Source: an uncultured archaeon
Lineage (GTDB): Archaea; Asgardarchaeota; Lokiarchaeia; Sigyniarchaeales; SOKP01
Assembly: GCA_964632315.1 (NCBI GenBank)
Contig: CAZWEM010000012.1
Location: 61,842-99,037 of the forward strand
Length of the DNA: 37,196 nucleotides
Direction: 5' to 3'
The number at the start of each line of letters is the position of its first letter. Position 1 is the stretch's first letter. Positions 25,302 to 35,314 of this stretch are shown here, one piece after another. Under the pieces are notes generated by a model. It worked only from the letters and a program-made list of their open reading frames with translations, was not told the origin of the DNA and did no database searches. The position numbers and the translations under genes were made by a program.

Positions 25302-25973
25302 ATGTCATACAAAGAACCATATACAGAGCAGTTAAGGATTAATTTTCTTAAGTATACCGGAAAAGCGTTTCAATTCCTGCCAGAAATGAAAAATCCAAAA
25401 ATTCTTGATTTAGGTTGTGGTTCTGGTCTAATTAGTCTTGAACTTGCAAAATTAACAGATGGAATTATCCATGCTATAGACATTGATCCAATTCTCTTAG
25501 ATAAGTTGAATGAAAAAGTCGAAATAAGAAATCTTTCACAAAAATTTAGAATTCAAAGGATTGATTTCTTAAAAAATAATTTCCCTAATGATTATTTTGA
25601 CCTGATATGGGAAGAAGGTGTGGTACATATAATAGGATTTAAGAAAAGCTTCAAGGAATGCAACCGGATCCTTAAACAAGGGGGATTTTTAGTTCTTGGT
25701 CAATCGATCAAATTGATGGAGAAAAATGAAGCACTAATAACCGAATGTGGTTATGAATTGATCAAACAATTAAACTGGCCTAAGGGATGTTGGTGGAATG
25801 AGTTCTATGGCCCTTTAGAGATAATAATTAAAGAAATACATGAAGGTAAGAAACCTAATCTTTTTGAAGATATTAACAAAATCGAAGAAGAGATTAGATG
25901 GGTCAAAGCCAATCCTAATGATAGTGATTGTGCGCATTACATTTTAAGAAAAAAAATAGAAGGAGGTGAATGA
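25302..25973 (+). CDS. Class I SAM-dependent methyltransferase
   Basis: ILDLGCGSG, AIDID, FDLIWEEG and LKQGG motifs. Confidence 0.92.
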   Translation: MSYKEPYTEQLRINFLKYTGKAFQFLPEMKNPKILDLGCGSGLISLELAKLTDGIIHAIDIDPILLDKLNEKVEIRNLSQKFRIQRIDFLKNNFPNDYFDLIWEEGVVHIIGFKKSFKECNRILKQGGFLVLGQSIKLMEKNEALITECGYELIKQLNWPKGCWWNEFYGPLEIIIKEIHEGKKPNLFEDINKIEEEIRWVKANPNDSDCAHYILRKKIEGGE

Positions 25974-28480
25974 GATTGGATGAAATAAAAGTAATTGGAG
26001 CAAGAATACATAACCTTAAAAATGTAAATGTAAACATTCCAAAGAGAAAGATGGTTCTTATTACAGGAGTTTCAGGATCCGGAAAATCAAGCTTAGCTTT
26101 TGATATCATATTTGATGAAGGGATGAATCGATATCTTCAATCAATTGGATTTCCTCCAAAATTCGAAGATGAGAAACCATTCGATAGGATTGAGGGACTA
26201 AGTCCTACAGTTGCTGTGGAACAAAGGACCACGAGGGTTTTTAATCCGCGTTCTACAGTTGGGACGAAGACTGCGTTATATAATCTTTTACGGATGTTAT
26301 ATTCAACAGAAGGTGAGTTCCTTTGTCCAATTTGTAAGATCCCTGTTAATGATAATTTGGAATGTGATACTTGCGGAATGGTTATAGATCGCCCCCAAAT
26401 TAAACATTTCTCTTTCAATGAGCCCAGTGGAATTCATTTTTGAGCTTATCAGATGACCAAATTGTGTCTCAATTGTAAGGGGAGGGGTTTTACATCCCAT
26501 CTAACTGAAGAACTTATCATACAGGATGAAAATTGGAATTTAGTAGAGATTACTAAAGCGGGATCAGCTGTTTTTGCTGATCAATTGCGATTTGTAGAAC
26601 AACTACCTAAGTTCTATGATTTTGACGGCAATACTCCGTATAAAGATCTATCTGATGAAATAAAGAAAGTATTTCTATATGGAAGTGGGAAAAAACTACC
26701 TTTTGAGTGGGATTCGAAAACATTTACAGGGACATTAGAACGAGAATTTGAAGGTATTATTCCTCACGTGGATCGCGCACTTAAAGAATCAAAAAGCTCA
26801 TATAGACGAAATAAAGCAAAGAATTTTATGGCTATTATGAAATGCGATGAATGCGATGGGTATCGCATAAATGAGCAAGCACGGGAAATTAAGATCAATG
26901 GAAAGCATATAGGAGAAATAGCAATGATACCTGTCGATGAGTTAAACAAATTTCTCTCAGAATTAACTGAGAATCACGTTAAGACACCTCAAGGTAAATC
27001 TATTATTGAAACGATAATCAAAGGTATTCAGAACATGATAGATGTAGGTTTATCTTATATTCATCTTAATCGAACTTTACCATCACTTAGTGGAGGGGAA
27101 TTACAACGTCTTTCTTTGATGACGCATTTGGATGCTGGTATTGATTCATTGATTTATGTGTTAGATGAACCAAGTATGAGTTTACATGAAAGAGAAAAAG
27201 ATTCTCTTATTAAAATTATAAAAAGATTAAAGGAATTGGGAAATTCAATAATAGTGGTTGAACATGATAGGCGTTTTATAGAAATTGCTGACATAATTAT
27301 CGATATCGGTCCAGACGCTGGAAAAAATGGAGGTAAAATTGTGTATAAAGGAGATCTTGAAGGATTAAAGGGTGTCAATGAGTCTTTTACAGGATTATTC
27401 TTGCGAGGCTTGATTAAACTTCCTCAAAAAATAAAAATGAATCGGGTTGATAAAACGACCAAATTCATAACCCTAAAAAACGCCACAACAAATAATTTAA
27501 AGGATATTACTGTTAATATTCCTTTAGAAATGATGGTTGGAATTGCCGGTGTTTCTGGATCGGGGAAGAGTTCACTAATTTTAGACACCCTTGTGCCACT
27601 ATTGAAGAAAATTTTTTCTGAGAACTCAGATTATGAAAATGAAGATGATATTGATGAGAATGGAGATGACGTATCTGAATATTATGCAAAAATTGAAGGA
27701 GCACAAAATATTGACGAAGTTATAGTAGTCAATCAAAAACCTATATCTAGAGTAAAAACATCTACGCCATGTTCTTATGTTGGGATATGGGATAAAATTC
27801 GAAAGGTATATGCAAAAACAGGTGATGCAAAAAAAATGAAATATAGTGCGGGGCATTTCTCTTATAATTCTGAAAAAGGAAGATGTCCTACATGCAGGGG
27901 AACCGGAGAACAAGACTTACAAATATCTTTTCTCAGCAGTTTTAACATTCCTTGTAAAGAATGTCATGGCACTCGATATAAACAAGAAATTTTAGATGTA
28001 TTTTACAAAGGTAAGAACATCGCTGATGTACTTAATATGACTGTTATTGAAGCATTAGAACATTTCAAATCCTATCCTAATATAACAAAAATACTACAAA
28101 TCCTTGATGACATTGGAATGGGATATATTACTCTAGGACAGCCTGCACCAACCTTAAGTGGTGGAGAAGCTCAAAGAGTAAAGTTAGCTAAAGAATTAGG
28201 CAAGACACGAAAAAAAAGTTCGCTCTATGTTCTTGACGAACCAACGGTTGGACTTTCTTTTTATGATGCCGTAAAACTCATGGAATTACTTCAAAAGATC
28301 GTGAATGAGGGCAATAGTGTAATTATAATTGAACATGATCCCGAAATCCTCTCGTATACTGATTATATTATTGAGCTTGGACCAGAAGGAGGCCCAAAAG
28401 GAGGAAAAGTGATCGCATTCGGAACACCTAAAGAAATTCGGGAAAATACTAATTCAAATACAAGTCCATACTTAAAATGA
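25970..28480 (+). CDS. uvrA: UvrA-family ABC ATPase (short class II/DrrC-like), interrupted by a 30-nt in-frame insertion containing TGA
   Basis: GARIHNLKNV, 2x GVSGSGKSSL, LSGGELQR/LSGGEAQR, LDEP and zinc fingers. ORFs 25970..26443 and 26453..28480 are in the same frame, separated by one TGA. Joined length is 826 aa. Confidence 0.88.
26433..26462 (+). other. Candidate 30-nt bulge-helix (BHB/BHL-like) mRNA intron in uvrA
   Basis: The insert forms a hairpin with a 3-nt bulge AAU next to a GUGG/CCAA helix. Excision gives FSFNEPSG-M-CLNCKGRG. Confidence 0.5.
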
Positions 28481-28487
28481 AAGATGT

Positions 28488-31400
28488 TTAATCTACAGCT
28501 TCAGGGATTAAAACTACAAAAGAATCTCCTTCTACCCAAATTTTACCGTTATAATTATCTAAGATTCTTTCGACGAGAAGAAAACCAAGGAGAATTTCCT
28601 TAATCTTACTATCTTTTTCTCTCTCCATTCGCAGGATATCTTTTTTTCCAATATCAGAAATCGCATTTCGATAATCTACAAATTCAATTTTTATAAAACT
28701 TTTATCATCTTGTAGATTCCTAAAGATAACAATCTTTAATTCAATTGATTGATCTTTGTTATATCGAATTGAACTGAAAAGCAAATTCGTGAAAATATCT
28801 GTTAAAAATTCATCTGCCATCACATAAAATTCTTCACTGGGAGCCTCAATTATAATATTAATCTTCTTATTTGTGTACATTGAAATTATATACTTTACGG
28901 CATTATCAATTTCTTTGTTTAAATTCACTTTTTTCATTGAGAGCGTTTTTTCATTAATGGATGTCAGCTTTTGGATCACTGATAAAAGCTGTTGCCCGTT
29001 TACATTTTGTTGTTTAATATTATTTAGTAATTCCTCTCCAATTTCTGACCTAAAAAAAGCAGTTTCATCCGCTAATTGATTTAGATAGGTCTGTAAATTA
29101 TTCATTATGATTTTAAAATCATTTACAAATAATTCTCTGTAAAAATATTCTCTATCAAATTCTCTATGAAATTCTTCTTCACTCTTTTGAAGTTCATATT
29201 TTGCAATTTCTCGAAATATACCATTCTTAAGAATTTCTGAAAAAAATCCTATCAATTCTAAATCTTCTATTTCCTTAGAAGAGAAATCTGAAAAATTTAC
29301 AAGAATTATGATTCCTTCCAAGTTATTCTCAATTTTTATTGCATAGACAATACAATTCCATATCTTTAATTTCTCAAGAAATTTCTTGAAATTGATACCA
29401 TCATTGGGGATTACTCCAATCTCAGTTAAGGTAAGATAATCTTTACTTTTTAACGTTTCTTTTAACCATGGAAAATTAGATATAGATATTGTCTCTGGTT
29501 CAATAATCTCAGGATTTAATATTTGAGCATGCCAAATAATTCCACTTTCCATAAAGCTAAAATCTTCATTTAGGTAATAAAAGTATGCTCTCCTTGCCTT
29601 GGTATAATCTCCAATATCTTTAAGAGAATCATATATCGCTTGATTAAAATCTTTCATTCCTACAAATCGAGAAATTATTCGAGCAATAATATTTTCTAAT
29701 TTTAAGACCTTCTTAAGCTCTTTTTCTGATCTTTTTTGTTCCGAAATATCATAACAAATTACTTGATAGTATGTTTCTTTACCAATTCTCACAAATGAAT
29801 TTTGTAAAGTAATCCAGGTAACTGTTTTATCCTTTCTATAAATTTGAACATCTATCGGAGGAAAATTCATATCTCTTGTTTCCTCCTTGAATCTTTTAAG
29901 GAATTCTACTAAAAAATCTTCGTGTATAATCGGTAAATTAATGAATTTCTTACCAATCAATTCTTCTCTACTATAACCAAAAATTTTTTCTAAAGCAGGG
30001 TTACAATCAACGACATAACCTTTAGGATCCAATAATAGAATACAAAATGGTGATTCCTCGAAAAGATGTCGATATTTTATTTCTGAATCCATTAATTTAA
30101 GTTCCGTTTCAATCCGCTCACTAACATCTCGAATAATGCATTGCACTAACATTTGATTGCCCATCTTCACTTCATTTACGTTAACTTCCACTGGGATGAT
30201 ATTTCCAGAGTGGCTAATTACATTTAACATGATAGGAGTCGGTTTATCGATATGCTCAAAGATTTTTTCCTTGAAATTTTTTCTGATATCGTCAATTAAT
30301 AACTGACTCGCGTGAAGTCCAACAAAATCCTCAAAAGGAAGCTCGAACAAATCTTCTGCTTTTTTATTTGCATCTATTATTATACCAGATTTTCGATCAA
30401 TAATTAAAATTGTATCTTGAGCTGCTTTAAATAATGTACTATAACGTAATTCAGCAAGTTTAAGTGCTTCAATAGAAGGTTTATATAATCCAATTTGAGT
30501 TATAATCGTTTGTTGGATATTTCGTAAATGTTCTAATATATCTTCATCATTTAGATAAGCCTCTTTAATAATTTCAAACTGCTCAAAAATAAAAATATTA
30601 AATTGATTAATAATTACTTTCGGAATATTTTGATTATAATATACGATTAAAGAAATAGGCAATAAACCCCCTCTAATCGATTCATCTGGCACATAATCAA
30701 AATAAATAGCAGCATTAGAATTTAGATGCGGAAAGGGAAGGATAATTGAAGCTCTTTCAAATTGACCGCCACTAAATATTACTTGCGACATTGCGAAACT
30801 TTTAACTGAAACTAATTCAGGATCTTCAAAAGCATCTTTAGGATGAACATTTTCTATTTTGACGCCTAAATTTTCATCCCATCTACAAAAAATTATTCCA
30901 ATGTCACTACTCGGGGTAACTCTATCTAATTTTTCTGCTATTTTTAAGGAGAGCCAATTAAAACTTTCATCTACATTCTTGTTTTTTATTCCACTTGTCA
31001 AGAAACATTTAATGGGTCGTTTTCCAAGCCGATTTATGCCCATAGCTTCAACTAAATCATCAAGATTAGGTTCACCTAAATCTACTTTATTGAACATAAT
31101 TAGAAGAGGTAATTCACTTAGTTCTGGTTTTCCTGCTATCTCGTGTAATAATGCTCTAGCATCTGGAAATTTAAGTTTATCATGGATATCCAATACAAAT
31201 ATTAGTCCATCTTGATCCTTCAGATATGGTTTCCATAAGTCCTTAAATTTAGATTGCCCAGGAACATCATAAGTTAAAAGAGATACATTATTGACTAAAA
31301 CCCTTGAAATATCTACACTTATTGTTGGGAATATCGTTTTTGATACAGATTTTCTTCGGCACCTTATTATAGTCGTCTTTCCAGCAAGGAATAAGCCAAA

Positions 31401-31865
31401 AACAAGAATTTTAGCCTCTTTTTGTTCAAAAATAACTTCCTGCTCGGGAAAAGAAGTATAGAATGAATTGATTAATTGAACTATTTCTTCGTATTTCTCT
31501 TTATCTCCTTTATACACTCTCGAATTGGTGTAAAAAGCTTTATAAACATCATCAATTTTCTTAAATTCTTCAACAAATCCGTTTAATAGTTTATTAGCTT
31601 GCTCAGTGTTTAAGTTACTTTTATTATCATACACTATCGAAATCAATAATCGTTCTTTTTTTGTTCTTGAATATGCACTATCAATGTCAAATAATAGATT
31701 TGCTGTTTTAAAGGACCCAAACATATGTTTAAAGAACCCTTTTTCATATAAATCTATCAATGTGGGAATCTGCTTTAGATCATCTCTATCTACTGATTCT
31801 GGAGCTTGTATTACTATTCTCGGTCGAAAAAAGGGTTTTAAATGGCTCAAAACTATAATTATCAA
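28488..31865 (-). CDS. Multidomain signalling protein: longin/uDENN-like, Arf-like small GTPase, longin/uDENN-like, PAS, PAS, GAF, degenerate HisKA/HATPase
   Basis: G1 GLFLAGKTT, G2 PTI, G3 DVPGQ, G4 NKVD and G5 TSG. Two PAS domains (IIDANKKAEDLF...RDVSER; VVDCNPALEKIFGYSREELIGK...DISEQ), a GAF-like region and a HATPase-like tail GKIWVE. Confidence 0.85.
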   Translation of the reverse strand: MIIIVLSHLKPFFRPRIVIQAPESVDRDDLKQIPTLIDLYEKGFFKHMFGSFKTANLLFDIDSAYSRTKKERLLISIVYDNKSNLNTEQANKLLNGFVEEFKKIDDVYKAFYTNSRVYKGDKEKYEEIVQLINSFYTSFPEQEVIFEQKEAKILVFGLFLAGKTTIIRCRRKSVSKTIFPTISVDISRVLVNNVSLLTYDVPGQSKFKDLWKPYLKDQDGLIFVLDIHDKLKFPDARALLHEIAGKPELSELPLLIMFNKVDLGEPNLDDLVEAMGINRLGKRPIKCFLTSGIKNKNVDESFNWLSLKIAEKLDRVTPSSDIGIIFCRWDENLGVKIENVHPKDAFEDPELVSVKSFAMSQVIFSGGQFERASIILPFPHLNSNAAIYFDYVPDESIRGGLLPISLIVYYNQNIPKVIINQFNIFIFEQFEIIKEAYLNDEDILEHLRNIQQTIITQIGLYKPSIEALKLAELRYSTLFKAAQDTILIIDRKSGIIIDANKKAEDLFELPFEDFVGLHASQLLIDDIRKNFKEKIFEHIDKPTPIMLNVISHSGNIIPVEVNVNEVKMGNQMLVQCIIRDVSERIETELKLMDSEIKYRHLFEESPFCILLLDPKGYVVDCNPALEKIFGYSREELIGKKFINLPIIHEDFLVEFLKRFKEETRDMNFPPIDVQIYRKDKTVTWITLQNSFVRIGKETYYQVICYDISEQKRSEKELKKVLKLENIIARIISRFVGMKDFNQAIYDSLKDIGDYTKARRAYFYYLNEDFSFMESGIIWHAQILNPEIIEPETISISNFPWLKETLKSKDYLTLTEIGVIPNDGINFKKFLEKLKIWNCIVYAIKIENNLEGIIILVNFSDFSSKEIEDLELIGFFSEILKNGIFREIAKYELQKSEEEFHREFDREYFYRELFVNDFKIIMNNLQTYLNQLADETAFFRSEIGEELLNNIKQQNVNGQQLLSVIQKLTSINEKTLSMKKVNLNKEIDNAVKYIISMYTNKKINIIIEAPSEEFYVMADEFLTDIFTNLLFSSIRYNKDQSIELKIVIFRNLQDDKSFIKIEFVDYRNAISDIGKKDILRMEREKDSKIKEILLGFLLVERILDNYNGKIWVEGDSFVVLIPEAVD

Positions 31866-32010: not shown

Positions 32011-32484
32011 ATGAAATCTGACTATCTCATTTTAGTAAATCTATATGAGAAATCATTAATGGCGACTAAGGCTCATATTGGCCAAATTAACTCCGAAAAA
32101 AAGAAGAAAAAATCAATCCAAAATAAATTGATATTTATAGGAGGTACAATAGCACTAATGATTGGATTGATTGGAATTTTTTTACCCATCCTTCCAACAA
32201 CACCATTTTTATTAATTTCCGCTGCAGCATATGCTAAATCATCAAATAAATTTTATAATTGGCTTCTAAAGAATAAGATATTAGGATCATATATTAGGAA
32301 TTATAAAGAAGGTCTCGGGATGCCTTTAAAAGTAAAGATATTTACTATAACCTTTTTATGGGTTATGATAATTGTAGCGATGATTGTAGTTCCAATCTTT
32401 TGGATTCAGATTTTGTTATTATTGATAGCAATTGCAGTATCAATACATATAATACTAATTAAACCAAAAAATACTTTAAAATAG
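32011..32484 (+). CDS. YbaN/DUF454-family membrane protein
   Basis: GIFLPILPTTPFLL...SS...WLL motif. The start may be ATG 32059. Confidence 0.88.
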   Translation: MKSDYLILVNLYEKSLMATKAHIGQINSEKKKKKSIQNKLIFIGGTIALMIGLIGIFLPILPTTPFLLISAAAYAKSSNKFYNWLLKNKILGSYIRNYKEGLGMPLKVKIFTITFLWVMIIVAMIVVPIFWIQILLLLIAIAVSIHIILIKPKNTLK

Positions 32485-32713: not shown

Positions 32714-33859
32714 ATGACAGTTAATGAAAGTTTAATTGGTAGAAAATCAATTGTTCTTGATAATGGCACAGGAATCTCAAAGAATGGCTATTCAGGAGAG
32801 GATCAACCACGTTCAGTCTTTCCAACAGTAATAGGAAAACCAAAATATGGGCATATTATGCCTGACGTTAAAGAATATTCGAGAGAATGGTATATTGGGG
32901 AGGAAGCAATGGAATTGAAAGGATTAATGTCTCTTCGATTTCCTATTGAACATGGAATTGTTGATGATTGGCCTTCAATGGAGCGAATATGGCATTATAC
33001 CTTTTATACTGATTTGAGAGTAGATCCTAGTGAGCACCCAGTATTATTAACAGAAGCTCCATTGAATCCAAGGTCAAATAGAGAAAAAATCGCAGAAATC
33101 ATGTTTGAGACTTTTAATGTACCTGCTTTATACATAGCAACACAAGCGATCCTTTCCCTTTATGCATCTGGGAGGACTACTGGTTGTGTCTTGGATATTG
33201 GAGACGGAGTCTCCCATATAGTGCCAATTTTTGAAGGTTTTGCTTTAAGTCATGCAATTCAAAGAGTTGATCTTGCAGGAAGAGATGTTACAAGCTACTT
33301 GCAACGATTATTAAGGCAGAAAGGATACAATTTTACTTCTTCAGCTGAGAGGGAAATTGTTAGAGACATTAAAGAAAAGTTATGTTATGTAGCCATAGAT
33401 CCTGAGAAGGAATTGATGTTATCGAAGAAAATATCTGGAATGGAAAAAAGTTATATGCTTCCCGATGGAGAAGTTATAAAAGTGGGAATTGAAAGGTTTT
33501 TAGGGCCCGAAAGTTTCTTTAATCCATCAGTCTTAGGTAAAGAATTAGATCCATTAGATGATGTGCTTGTAGACGCTATAAATGAATGCGATGTAGATTT
33601 AAGAAGAGAATTATTCAGTAATATAGTGCTTTCTGGTGGTTCTACCATGTTTCCTGGTATTAAAGAAAGATTGGCTAAAGAAATTAAAGAATTAATTCCT
33701 GAATCAGTAGATGTACGTATTCTCTCCCCACCTGAAAGAATGTATTCGGTATGGATTGGAGGGTCAATTCTTTCTTCTCTTAAAACATTCTCAAGAATGT
33801 GGATTACAAGACGGGAGTATAAAGAATTAGGACCGAGTGTGATCCATAGATGTTTTTAA
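32714..33859 (+). CDS. Eukaryote-like actin (Asgard actin, Lokiactin/ARP-like)
   Basis: [107 protein letters not shown] and GPSVIHRCF motifs. Confidence 0.97.
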
Positions 33860-34075: not shown

Positions 34076-35314
34076 GTGATAGTGATGAGTGGAATATTAG
34101 CATCCATCAAAAACAATTTAGAACCAGTTAAAGAAGTGATTGCCTTAGCGATAGTTGATTTTGAAGATTGTGTAATTCATTCCTCAGACAACTGGGATAT
34201 AGAGAAAGAACTTAGCACTTTAAACTCTGTTTGGGGATCTTTACAACGGGAATTAACATTATTTGGAGAAAGTTATTCGATTCTTCATAATTCTAAAGAA
34301 TTACTTATTGCAATTATTTTTGAAAAGGGAAAAGTTAAGGAGAATAAACCTAAAGAAGGGATTGTAGGGTTTAGAAATGAAGATAACAAAATATATGTGA
34401 AAATATCTGATTTTAATTCCTTACGTTCAGTGGTTGCTAATGCAGCTAGAGTTCTTACAGATATAAGGAGGAAAGAACCATATATTAAATCAGGAGAGAT
34501 TTTTAGTAAAACTAAATTCGATTTAACTCCCAAAATTTTATCTGATACATCGCATGTACTTGAAAAAGTGGGATTAAACCAATTTGGGATTAGTGAGGAT
34601 GAAGCAAAAGTCTATCTTGCCTTATTAAGAAAAGGTGAAGATGGGGATAAGGTAGGTAACTTAGACAAAGAGTTATTACTTAAAAGAACTCATATATATC
34701 GCATAATAAATAGATTAGTTGAAAAGAATTGGGTTGAGGAATTAGCCAAATTTCCTAGAGGAGCTCAATTATATGGCGCGAGACCCATTGATGAATTATT
34801 AGATAACGTTATAAAGGAAAAAGAGGAAGAAATAAAGGTGTTAAAGGGATTTAAATTAATCTTAGGTGAAAATCTCGAAAATGGATGGAATTTGGATAAT
34901 TTGGATCTCAATGATTTGAAAAAACCGTTTGATCTTGATATTAAAGAGATAACTGGATTTGAGAAGGATAACGGGATTGTTATATTTGAATATGATAGAT
35001 TGATTAAGGATGAGGAGAATTTGGACAGAGTAAAATTACGTTTGTATTCCGAGAAATTAAAACAAGAAATTAAAGAGAATGCAATATCTGATTTGGAGTA
35101 TATAGAAATAGATGAGGTTAAAATCAGTAATTATCTAGGTGCTAATATTAAAATTAAGTTTCGAAAAAATAGTAACATCTCCAATAATTTAGGATCTGAC
35201 TGGATCATTGTAGCAAAGTTAGTAGCAATCCCCATTGATAATAAAATATACGTTATTTGGGGTTCTGAACAAAAGTTTCCTTATCTATTAAATATAATTC
35301 AAAAACTAAAATAG
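34076..35314 (+). CDS. Fusion of N-terminal profilin-like domain, TrmB-type winged HTH and unknown C-terminal domain
   Basis: N-terminus: IALAIVD...IHSSDNWDI...LTLFGESYSILHNSKELLIA...GIVG. Middle: FGISEDEAKVYLALL...RTHIYRIINRLVEKNWV...YGARPIDELL. Confidence 0.75.
   Translation: MIVMSGILASIKNNLEPVKEVIALAIVDFEDCVIHSSDNWDIEKELSTLNSVWGSLQRELTLFGESYSILHNSKELLIAIIFEKGKVKENKPKEGIVGFRNEDNKIYVKISDFNSLRSVVANAARVLTDIRRKEPYIKSGEIFSKTKFDLTPKILSDTSHVLEKVGLNQFGISEDEAKVYLALLRKGEDGDKVGNLDKELLLKRTHIYRIINRLVEKNWVEELAKFPRGAQLYGARPIDELLDNVIKEKEEEIKVLKGFKLILGENLENGWNLDNLDLNDLKKPFDLDIKEITGFEKDNGIVIFEYDRLIKDEENLDRVKLRLYSEKLKQEIKENAISDLEYIEIDEVKISNYLGANIKIKFRKNSNISNNLGSDWIIVAKLVAIPIDNKIYVIWGSEQKFPYLLNIIQKLK

Follow-up and report, generated by a model that had tools for sequence, protein, structure and literature searches.

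What does a small GTPase accomplish inside a sensor protein whose histidine kinase appears to be dead? The question is posed by one gene in a stretch of 37,196 nucleotides, referred to here as the window, from contig CAZWEM010000012.1 of an uncultured lokiarchaeial archaeon (assembly GCA_964632315.1). The gene, hereafter the sensor gene, occupies positions 28488–31865 on the reverse strand and encodes a protein of 1125 residues from a TTG start. A preliminary description of the window had singled out this open reading frame, its GTPase motifs, its kinase-box strings and its longin-like flanks, all of which have been confirmed. The reading favoured here is that the product is a self-contained GTPase switch gated by PAS and GAF domains, in which the dead kinase is kept as a dimer scaffold: its probability is placed at about 0.45, slightly short of even odds.

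The frame consists of 1125 open codons counted from the TTG, and a Shine-Dalgarno-like box, AGAAGGA, lies 7–8 nucleotides 5' of this start. Homologues align with the sensor protein from residue 1, and strand 1 of the N-terminal domain requires those residues. The protein is predicted to be soluble and cytoplasmic, as it contains no hydrophobic stretch long enough for a membrane span. From the N-terminus, a first longin domain of the NPRL2/FLCN type (residues 1–145, positions 31431–31865) is followed by an Arf-family G domain (146–310, 30936–31430) and by a second longin (311–468, 30462–30935), which ends in a long helix that extends into the first PAS domain. Two PAS domains (about 469–592 and 593–715, 29721–30461), a divergent GAF domain (716–890, 29196–29720), a DHp-like helical hairpin (891–985, 28911–29195) and a degenerate, HATPase_c-like CA domain (986–1125, 28491–28910) complete the chain, all on the reverse strand. 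The PAS domains are defined by Pfam and NCBIfam matches (PAS_9, E 2e-26 in two stretches; TIGR00229 PAS S-box, E 5.7e-40), and the NCBIfam matches to kinase cores are weak. At 20.1 bits the GAF domain of the sensor protein itself falls below the Pfam cutoff of 22.4 and was recognized with a family hidden Markov model on relatives: 11 of 17 family members match, the best at E 5e-7. Among 5.8 billion proteins searched, about 85 homologous clusters of 1079–1131 residues were found, with 43–92% identity and an identical architecture, together with a group of paralogues of ∼950 residues that lack the GAF domain.

The G domain is unambiguous. Pfam Arf (PF00025) matches residues 146–307 with E 1.4e-33 (116.3 bits, cutoff 22.3), at the place given in the preliminary description, and the motif set from G1 to G5 is intact: the P-loop GLFLAGKT, the switch-I residue T181, DVPGQ204, NKVD and TSG are all present, as is DLWKPY, which conforms to the Arf-type LWxxY of switch II. 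When the family profile was compared with the PDB, it recovered Arf1 (E 2e-35), Arl8 (1e-29) and Sar1 (2e-27); Rag was not among the best 60 PDB matches, and neither a Gtr1_RagA match nor a C-terminal roadblock was found. The defining feature of Arf proteins is an amphipathic helix at the N-terminus, which swings out when GTP binds (10.1101/2024.02.28.582541). The sensor protein does not display such a helix: the residues before the G domain belong to helix 3 of the first longin and a short linker.

The domains on either side of the GTPase were modelled with AlphaFold2 on family alignments, domain by domain. The first longin (residues 1–148) reached a predicted local distance difference test score of 92 and the second (308–468) a score of 84, and both models show the longin order of elements, β-β-α-β-β-β-α-α. 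The best Foldseek matches of both are NPRL2/Npr2, FLCN, Lst4 and the Lokiarchaeal longin 8yqg, which ranks at the top (E 2.9e-5 and 7.2e-4). Topology and fold searches thus bear out the proposal that the flanks are longin- or uDENN-like. In the fold search with the second longin, 8yqg scored 15.8, Lst4 13.5, FLCN 12.5, NPRL3 12.0 and C9orf72–SMCR8 11.5, and roadblocks no more than 8.7: because of this ranking the domain that follows the GTPase is considered a longin and not a Rag-type roadblock. An Atlas shape search with the second longin led to clusters annotated as Folliculin, NPR2, Avl9, SMCR8 and C9orf72. The Atlas clusters matched by the longins carry NPR2 or Folliculin families in only 19–23% of their members. 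An ESM Atlas feature search gave weak scores for the first longin (0.83 at most), with one cluster containing NPR2 in 19% of members, and nothing usable for the second. Profile searches of both longins against PDB sequences returned chance matches only, with E 0.5 or above. When the two longins were compared with each other by hhalign, the probability was 1.7%; the alignment pairs strand 1 with strand 1 and R67 with R398.

A short glycine–proline (GP) motif at the turn between strands 1 and 2, together with an arginine finger, is reported to mark the longins that act as GTPase-activating proteins (GAPs), namely FLCN, NPRL2, SMCR8 and C9orf72, and also some Asgard longins (PMC12290439). In the PDB chains of NPRL2 the GP motif lies within residues 7–31, and R78 within the string K-K-Y-S-R. 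The ∼950-residue paralogues of the sensor protein begin with MKIIILSHFNPRFGPKILLKAPES, which matches NPRL2 7–31 without gaps at 10 of 25 positions (S, F, P, GPKI and PE), the GP motif included. The motif is kept in these paralogues and in all 12 of the wider relatives fetched, which carry LSYFxxxxGP and [YW]ARG. An arginine is found family-wide in the β4–β5 loop of the first longin, as YSR or ARG. The sensor protein itself has R14-P15 at the turn and Y65-S66-R67 in the loop, the latter identical to residues 76–78 of NPRL2. The second longin is characterized by W329-D330-x3-G334, with the spacing that separates W33-D34 from G38 in C9orf72. About 82 of 84 sequences retain both this WD-x3-G motif and R398-G399, in the loop between strands 4 and 5. 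As judged from the models and these motifs, the longins resemble the GAP type (NPRL2, FLCN, Lst4, SMCR8 and C9orf72) in both fold and motif, and not the type that serves guanine-nucleotide exchange factors (GEFs). The suggestion that the flanks form GEF-like platforms was therefore not upheld: the nearest relatives are GAP-type longins, and the flanks themselves have an arginine in a loop and a motif derived from GP. The same genome harbours three more longin proteins with a GP motif (LSYFHRKIGP..., DWARG), at C20:57430–57879 in a frame of 387 residues, C3:11792–12238 in a frame of 210 and C29:53334–53750 in a frame of 376.

At the opposite end of the chain, a profile of residues 890–1125 matches the histidine kinase HK853 (2c2a) across both DHp and CA with E 6.9e-14, so that homology is evident; the Pfam HATPase_c score, 20.0 bits, is below the cutoff of 26.4. 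All four kinase boxes had been read correctly in the preliminary description, as verified by sequence and alignment, and none of them conforms to a kinase motif. The H-box is LFVND, with Asn915 (29121–29123) in the column of the phospho-accepting histidine (SHELKTPL) when aligned with canonical Asgard kinases and also with sister kinases. The N-box is NLLFSSIRY, with Ser1031 in place of the Mg-binding asparagine, the G1 box is DYRNAI and the G2 box is EILLGF. Two elements are retained: D1064, the adenine-binding aspartate of G1, and the first asparagine of the N-box. G1 and G2 are ruined in all 84 family members aligned, every one of which also lacks a stretch of ∼9 residues near the C-terminus that active relatives possess; the Mg-binding asparagine is lost in 73/73 full-length orthologues and in some paralogues. 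Loss of the H-box is conserved in part: of the 73 orthologues, 60 have Asn at position 915 and seven have Ser, Lys, Thr or Gln, and the histidine persists in six deep 1125-residue members and in most ∼950-residue paralogues. Since the box losses are common to the whole family and histidine survives only in deep branches, the decay must be old and clade-wide; strain-specific decay, which would have undermined the initial interpretation, is not what was found. The loss was stepwise in the alignment, with the boxes of the ATP lid lost first and the histidine later. With lid boxes, Mg-binding asparagine and phospho-accepting histidine gone, the DHp-CA region is predicted to be unable to autophosphorylate.

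The ancestry of this region was traced with a profile of the first longin, which detected 571 representative proteins. Among the best 150, which were listed and all have E 1e-23 or better, many are of the Longin-PAS(n)-kinase type and some are longin-Arf-longin-...-kinase proteins whose HATPase_c scores lie well above the cutoff. The cores of these sister kinases share the family signature FYKxLFAHDxxNI and keep FAHD, NAIK, DNGxGI, GMGIGLSL and the DYSKG stretch near the C-terminus. On sequence grounds, the dead kinase descends from an Asgard histidine-kinase subfamily whose sister proteins retain every box. Six proteins of this kind (P0158, P0146, P0143, P0127, P0151 and P0160) represent a large Asgard family of Longin-PAS(n)-histidine kinases without a GTPase, with a GP-type N-terminal longin and intact H, N, G1 and G2 boxes. 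Such Longin-PAS(n)-kinases suggest an input domain that binds a free small GTPase. A further relative, P0124, extends over 2317 residues as longin-Arf-longin-PAS x6-GAF x2-kinase; its N, G1 and G2 boxes are intact and a tyrosine occupies the phospho-His position.

Conservation extends over the entire chain. Mean pairwise identity, computed by domain over the 73 orthologues, is highest for the G domain (0.77) and PAS1 (0.72), followed by the second longin and PAS2 (both 0.68), the first longin (0.66), CA (0.65), GAF (0.54) and DHp (0.53), the lowest of all. No orthologue carries a broken frame, and CA is about as well conserved as the longins: these two observations indicate that the degenerate kinase is under constraint. 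The sensor gene is also covered, at identities of at least 99%, by contigs from four further studies, most of them of salt-marsh metagenomes. One of 1496 nucleotides, from another study, spans 30051–31546: it takes in the bulk of the first longin, both the G domain and the second longin, and the opening part of PAS1, thereby crossing three domain junctions. This contig and the about 85 full-length homologues from independent assemblies dispose of the concern that the fusion might be an assembly chimera. Two apparent joints seen in single short contigs, with sides of 21–25 nucleotides, were dismissed as noise. The public runs listed offered no RNA data for the sensor gene.

A survey of 400 genomes of the phylum shows a restricted distribution. 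The full longin-Arf-longin module is essentially confined to the GTDB family of the host, where it is present in 55 of 134 genomes; the host's own genus accounts for 13 of 41, and a second genus for 32 of 54. Outside the family, the order and class contain shorter longin-Arf proteins of about 325 residues. In other classes none was found among the 400 genomes at E 1e-40 or better, and the Thor, Heimdall and Odin labels attached to some database entries are doubtful for this reason. The host genome measures 4.45 Mb and is 99.5% complete, and the gene is present in it as a single copy; the window represents the end of contig 12.

How might such a protein work? In the favoured reading two modules are joined. 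The first (residues 1–468) consists of the Arf-family GTPase held between two GAP-type longins in one chain. By analogy with eukaryotic complexes the longins may pair, cradle the G domain and hold out an arginine from one of their loops to the nucleotide site. R398, almost invariant in the second longin, and R67 of the first longin are the candidates for this role; with such an arrangement the GTPase would carry its own off-switch. The second module (residues 469–1125) comprises the PAS-PAS-GAF array and a DHp-CA of active-kinase descent. A ligand or a redox state perceived by the PAS or GAF domains would be passed through the helical linker to the second longin, alter the grip of the longin pair on the G domain and in this way set its GTP/GDP state. 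The GTP-bound G domain, or the longin platform, might then bind downstream partners, with the dead DHp-CA persisting as a scaffold for dimerization and transmission.

A number of observations weigh against this reading. Pfam scans of the longin alignments yielded no significant family, neither NPR2 (PF06218) nor Folliculin (PF11704), the best result being a single member at E 0.095 to Folliculin. The glycine of the GP motif is an arginine in the sensor protein (R14-P15), the second longin has G334-V335 at this place, and neither domain contains a true GP motif. The likeness to C9orf72 is a short motif: BLASTP of the start of the second longin against C9orf72 25–51 gave no alignment. R67 and R398 are candidate fingers, both placed in β4–β5 loops by the models, and their equivalence to R78 of NPRL2 or R164 of FLCN is putative. 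The AlphaFold2 folds cover single domains, so that the contact between longins and G domain is proposed by analogy.

A further point is the fate of the residues that hydrolysis would need. The catalytic Gln204 is present in the sensor protein; in 45 of 73 orthologues it is a lysine (DIPGK), and the deep clade that keeps the phospho-accepting histidine has Tyr or His instead. Most orthologues have K, N or G in place of R67, along with the Gln204 to Lys change, and with both residues lost in most of them a classical arginine-finger and glutamine mechanism through the first longin is impossible for the family as a whole. In a FastTree tree of the first 475 residues, arbitrarily rooted, the glycine of the GP motif is lost first and the replacement of R67 by K, N or G and of Gln by Lys follows in a terminal clade; the sensor protein belongs to a subclade in which R67 and Gln204 are both preserved. 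Across the orthologues, the loss of the glutamine accompanies that of R67 in the first longin. Two further points count on the same side. Of the 41 genomes in its genus, 28 lack the sensor gene, several of these being 98–100% complete; the gene must consequently be considered accessory. Moreover, in the sister proteins this longin precedes an intact kinase, a position which favours the longin/GTPase end as an input and not as an output.

This last point leads directly to the strongest rival. Caulobacter DivL is a pseudo-histidine kinase: a PAS-containing DHp-CA protein devoid of the phospho-accepting histidine that serves as a signalling scaffold. Analogously, the nucleotide state of the longin-Arf-longin module could be the input of the sensor protein and the dead DHp-CA its output surface, tuning a phosphorelay without catalysis, either by binding or sequestering a response regulator or by pairing with an active kinase of the same subfamily. 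This arrangement is a genuine contender, if on balance an unlikely one. It places the longin end in the input position that is normal in sister kinases with intact boxes, and it accounts for the conservation of the pseudokinase. The genome encodes 16 receiver proteins, as well as five kinases of this DHp-CA subfamily that are probably active. Relative P0124, with its tyrosine at the histidine site and its intact CA, is reminiscent of DivL, and pseudo-kinases have been noted in Asgard two-component systems (PMC10343646). Against this stand the lack of a conserved neighbouring receiver or kinase gene across eight orthologous loci and the position of DHp as the least conserved domain (0.53); the binding of a partner is putative. 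None of the 16 receiver proteins is encoded near the sensor gene, and no receiver gene is adjacent to it in its neighbourhood on the contig. The preliminary description had proposed a sensor rewired so that its output is GTPase switching: the kinase is indeed degenerate, and conserved in this condition, and a GTPase output is one of two live readings.

A different role for the longins, as a GEF-like platform for nucleotide exchange or locking in the manner of TRAPP, Mon1–Ccz1 and the DENN longins, is improbable. Longins and DENN longins are mostly GEF platforms (PMC3747258; PMC12290439), and the loss of R67 and replacement of Gln by Lys in most orthologues are consistent with a non-hydrolytic role. 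However, the GP motif of the relatives and the conserved loop arginine are features reported for GAP longins and not for GEF longins, the longins are not followed by DENN or dDENN domains, and the fold ranking makes an exchange function less likely still. It is very unlikely that the kinase still works in some unconventional way, for instance through phosphorylation in trans or at a different residue such as His900: D1064 and the first N-box asparagine are kept, His900 is at least 90% conserved and the canonical histidine survives in deep branches, yet both glycine lids and the Mg-binding asparagine are gone in every orthologue, the stretch near the C-terminus is missing, HATPase_c remains below its cutoff, and the position of His900 is R, K or H in active relatives, which identifies it as a generic basic site. 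Finally, a decaying gene or functionless chimera, for which only the patchy occurrence within the genus might speak, can in practice be regarded as refuted, given some 85 intact homologues of equal length from independent sources, the conservation of all domains and the near-identical contigs of four other studies, one of them across three domain junctions.

The surroundings of the gene are variable: no conserved neighbour was found across the eight orthologous loci. A Lokiactin-type actin (32714–33859, forward strand; Pfam Actin, E 7.6e-129) lies two genes away, as previously described, with a single DUF454 gene (32011–32484) between it and the sensor frame. As a conserved context the actin does not stand, since none is nearby in the eight loci. 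A 412-residue protein of the TrmB helix-turn-helix type (34076–35314) is located after the actin. On the other side of the sensor gene, UvrA is split into adjacent reading frames ∼10 nucleotides apart on the forward strand, one at 25970–26443 (157 residues, with the P-loop) and one at 26453–28480 (675 residues, with the DNA-binding and ABC parts); separate matches to UvrA_N and UvrA_C were also observed in one orthologous locus (L014). Upstream of uvrA lies a small group of unrelated genes, for a BtrH_N/DUF4872 protein, similar to peptidase C39 (23580–24728, forward strand), then a DUF3795 protein and an S-adenosylmethionine methyltransferase.

The general type of fusion, longin with two-component domains or longin with GTPase, is already in print. 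An NPRL2-like longin fused to two-component domains has been reported in a preprint (10.1101/2020.10.19.343400), and longin-GTPase fusions of Prometheoarchaeum MK-D1 have been described with L-G, G-R and L-G-R architectures (PMC10933270). A search of the Asgard literature, covering Roadblock-Longin, LokiRagM and GTPase-kinase fusions, did not disclose the longin-Arf-longin architecture with a dead kinase, nor the WD-x3-G and RGG motifs that are invariant in the second longin, nor the stepwise series of losses. A survey of 2025 documented GP and arginine motifs in Asgard longins and asked which GTPase might be their archaeal partner (PMC12290439). The covalent fusion of such longins to an Arf-family G domain names a likely one, and a soluble fragment of 468 residues makes the question of longin GAP activity testable in a single polypeptide. 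At the eukaryotic lysosome, Rag and Arf GTPases are controlled by pairs of longins, which provide an arginine finger. In the most ambitious version of the favoured reading, longin-Arf-longin would be a single-chain archaeal counterpart of GATOR1–Rag, FLCN–FNIP–Rag and C9orf72–SMCR8–Arf, in which a ligand-gated intramolecular arginine finger (R398 and/or R67) regulates GTP hydrolysis in place of phosphotransfer. This version is doubtful; if it were true, the control of Arf/Rag-type GTPases by longin GAPs, linked to the sensing of metabolites, would be older than eukaryotes. The PAS/GAF array and the dead kinase would, for their part, exemplify a bacterial-type sensor chassis repurposed around a eukaryote-type switch, and the intermediates within the family, from active kinase through loss of the lid to loss of the histidine, provide a natural series for the change from kinase to pseudokinase. 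The value of the case is tempered by a family that is narrow and accessory, by a fusion type already published and by knowledge that derives from sequence and models.

Among known systems, DivL keeps an ATP-binding CA and a tyrosine at the histidine site; in the sensor protein the ATP lid is destroyed as well and a GTPase module is attached. The actinobacterial conservon (PMC13343842) consists of the kinase-like sensor CvnA, the roadblock CvnB, CvnC and the Ras-like GTPase CvnD. It likewise unites a histidine-kinase-like sensor, a protein of the roadblock/longin superfamily and a small GTPase in one system, and differs in being bacterial, in its four separate operon-encoded proteins, in its roadblock, in its MglA/Ras-like GTPase and in a kinase of modulated activity. 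The Asgard fusions, the Loki Roadblock-Longin (8yqg) and LokiRagM (8zla) belong to the same lineage and employ the same building blocks as the sensor protein. In contrast to the Asgard longin-GTPase fusions, the domain after the GTPase is here a longin and not a roadblock, and the kinase is dead.

The eukaryotic complexes offer further parallels. C9orf72–SMCR8–WDR41 (7mge, 6lt0, 7o2w) brings a longin heterodimer to an Arf-family GTPase, Arf1, and has the WD-x3-G spacing in common with the second longin. The likeness is at the level of a motif, with no BLASTP match, the proline of the GP motif is Val or Ile in the sensor family, WDR41 has no counterpart and the parts are covalently fused. In GATOR1 (NPRL2–NPRL3) with RagA, and in FLCN–FNIP2 or Lst7–Lst4 with RagC/Gtr2 (7t3b, 6ces, 8dhb, 6nzd, 4zy8), a longin pair likewise stands beside a small GTPase. 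Unlike these assemblies, the sensor protein is one chain, its GTPase is Arf-type by sequence and not Rag, DENN domains and the C-terminal domains of NPRL2 are absent, no Pfam NPR2 or Folliculin match is obtained, residue 14 is Arg in place of Gly and a GAP role is putative. What the two have in common is the GP motif, in the relatives of the sensor protein, and the loop arginine: residues 7–31 and Y76-S77-R78 of NPRL2 resemble strands 1–2 and Y65-S66-R67 of the first longin.

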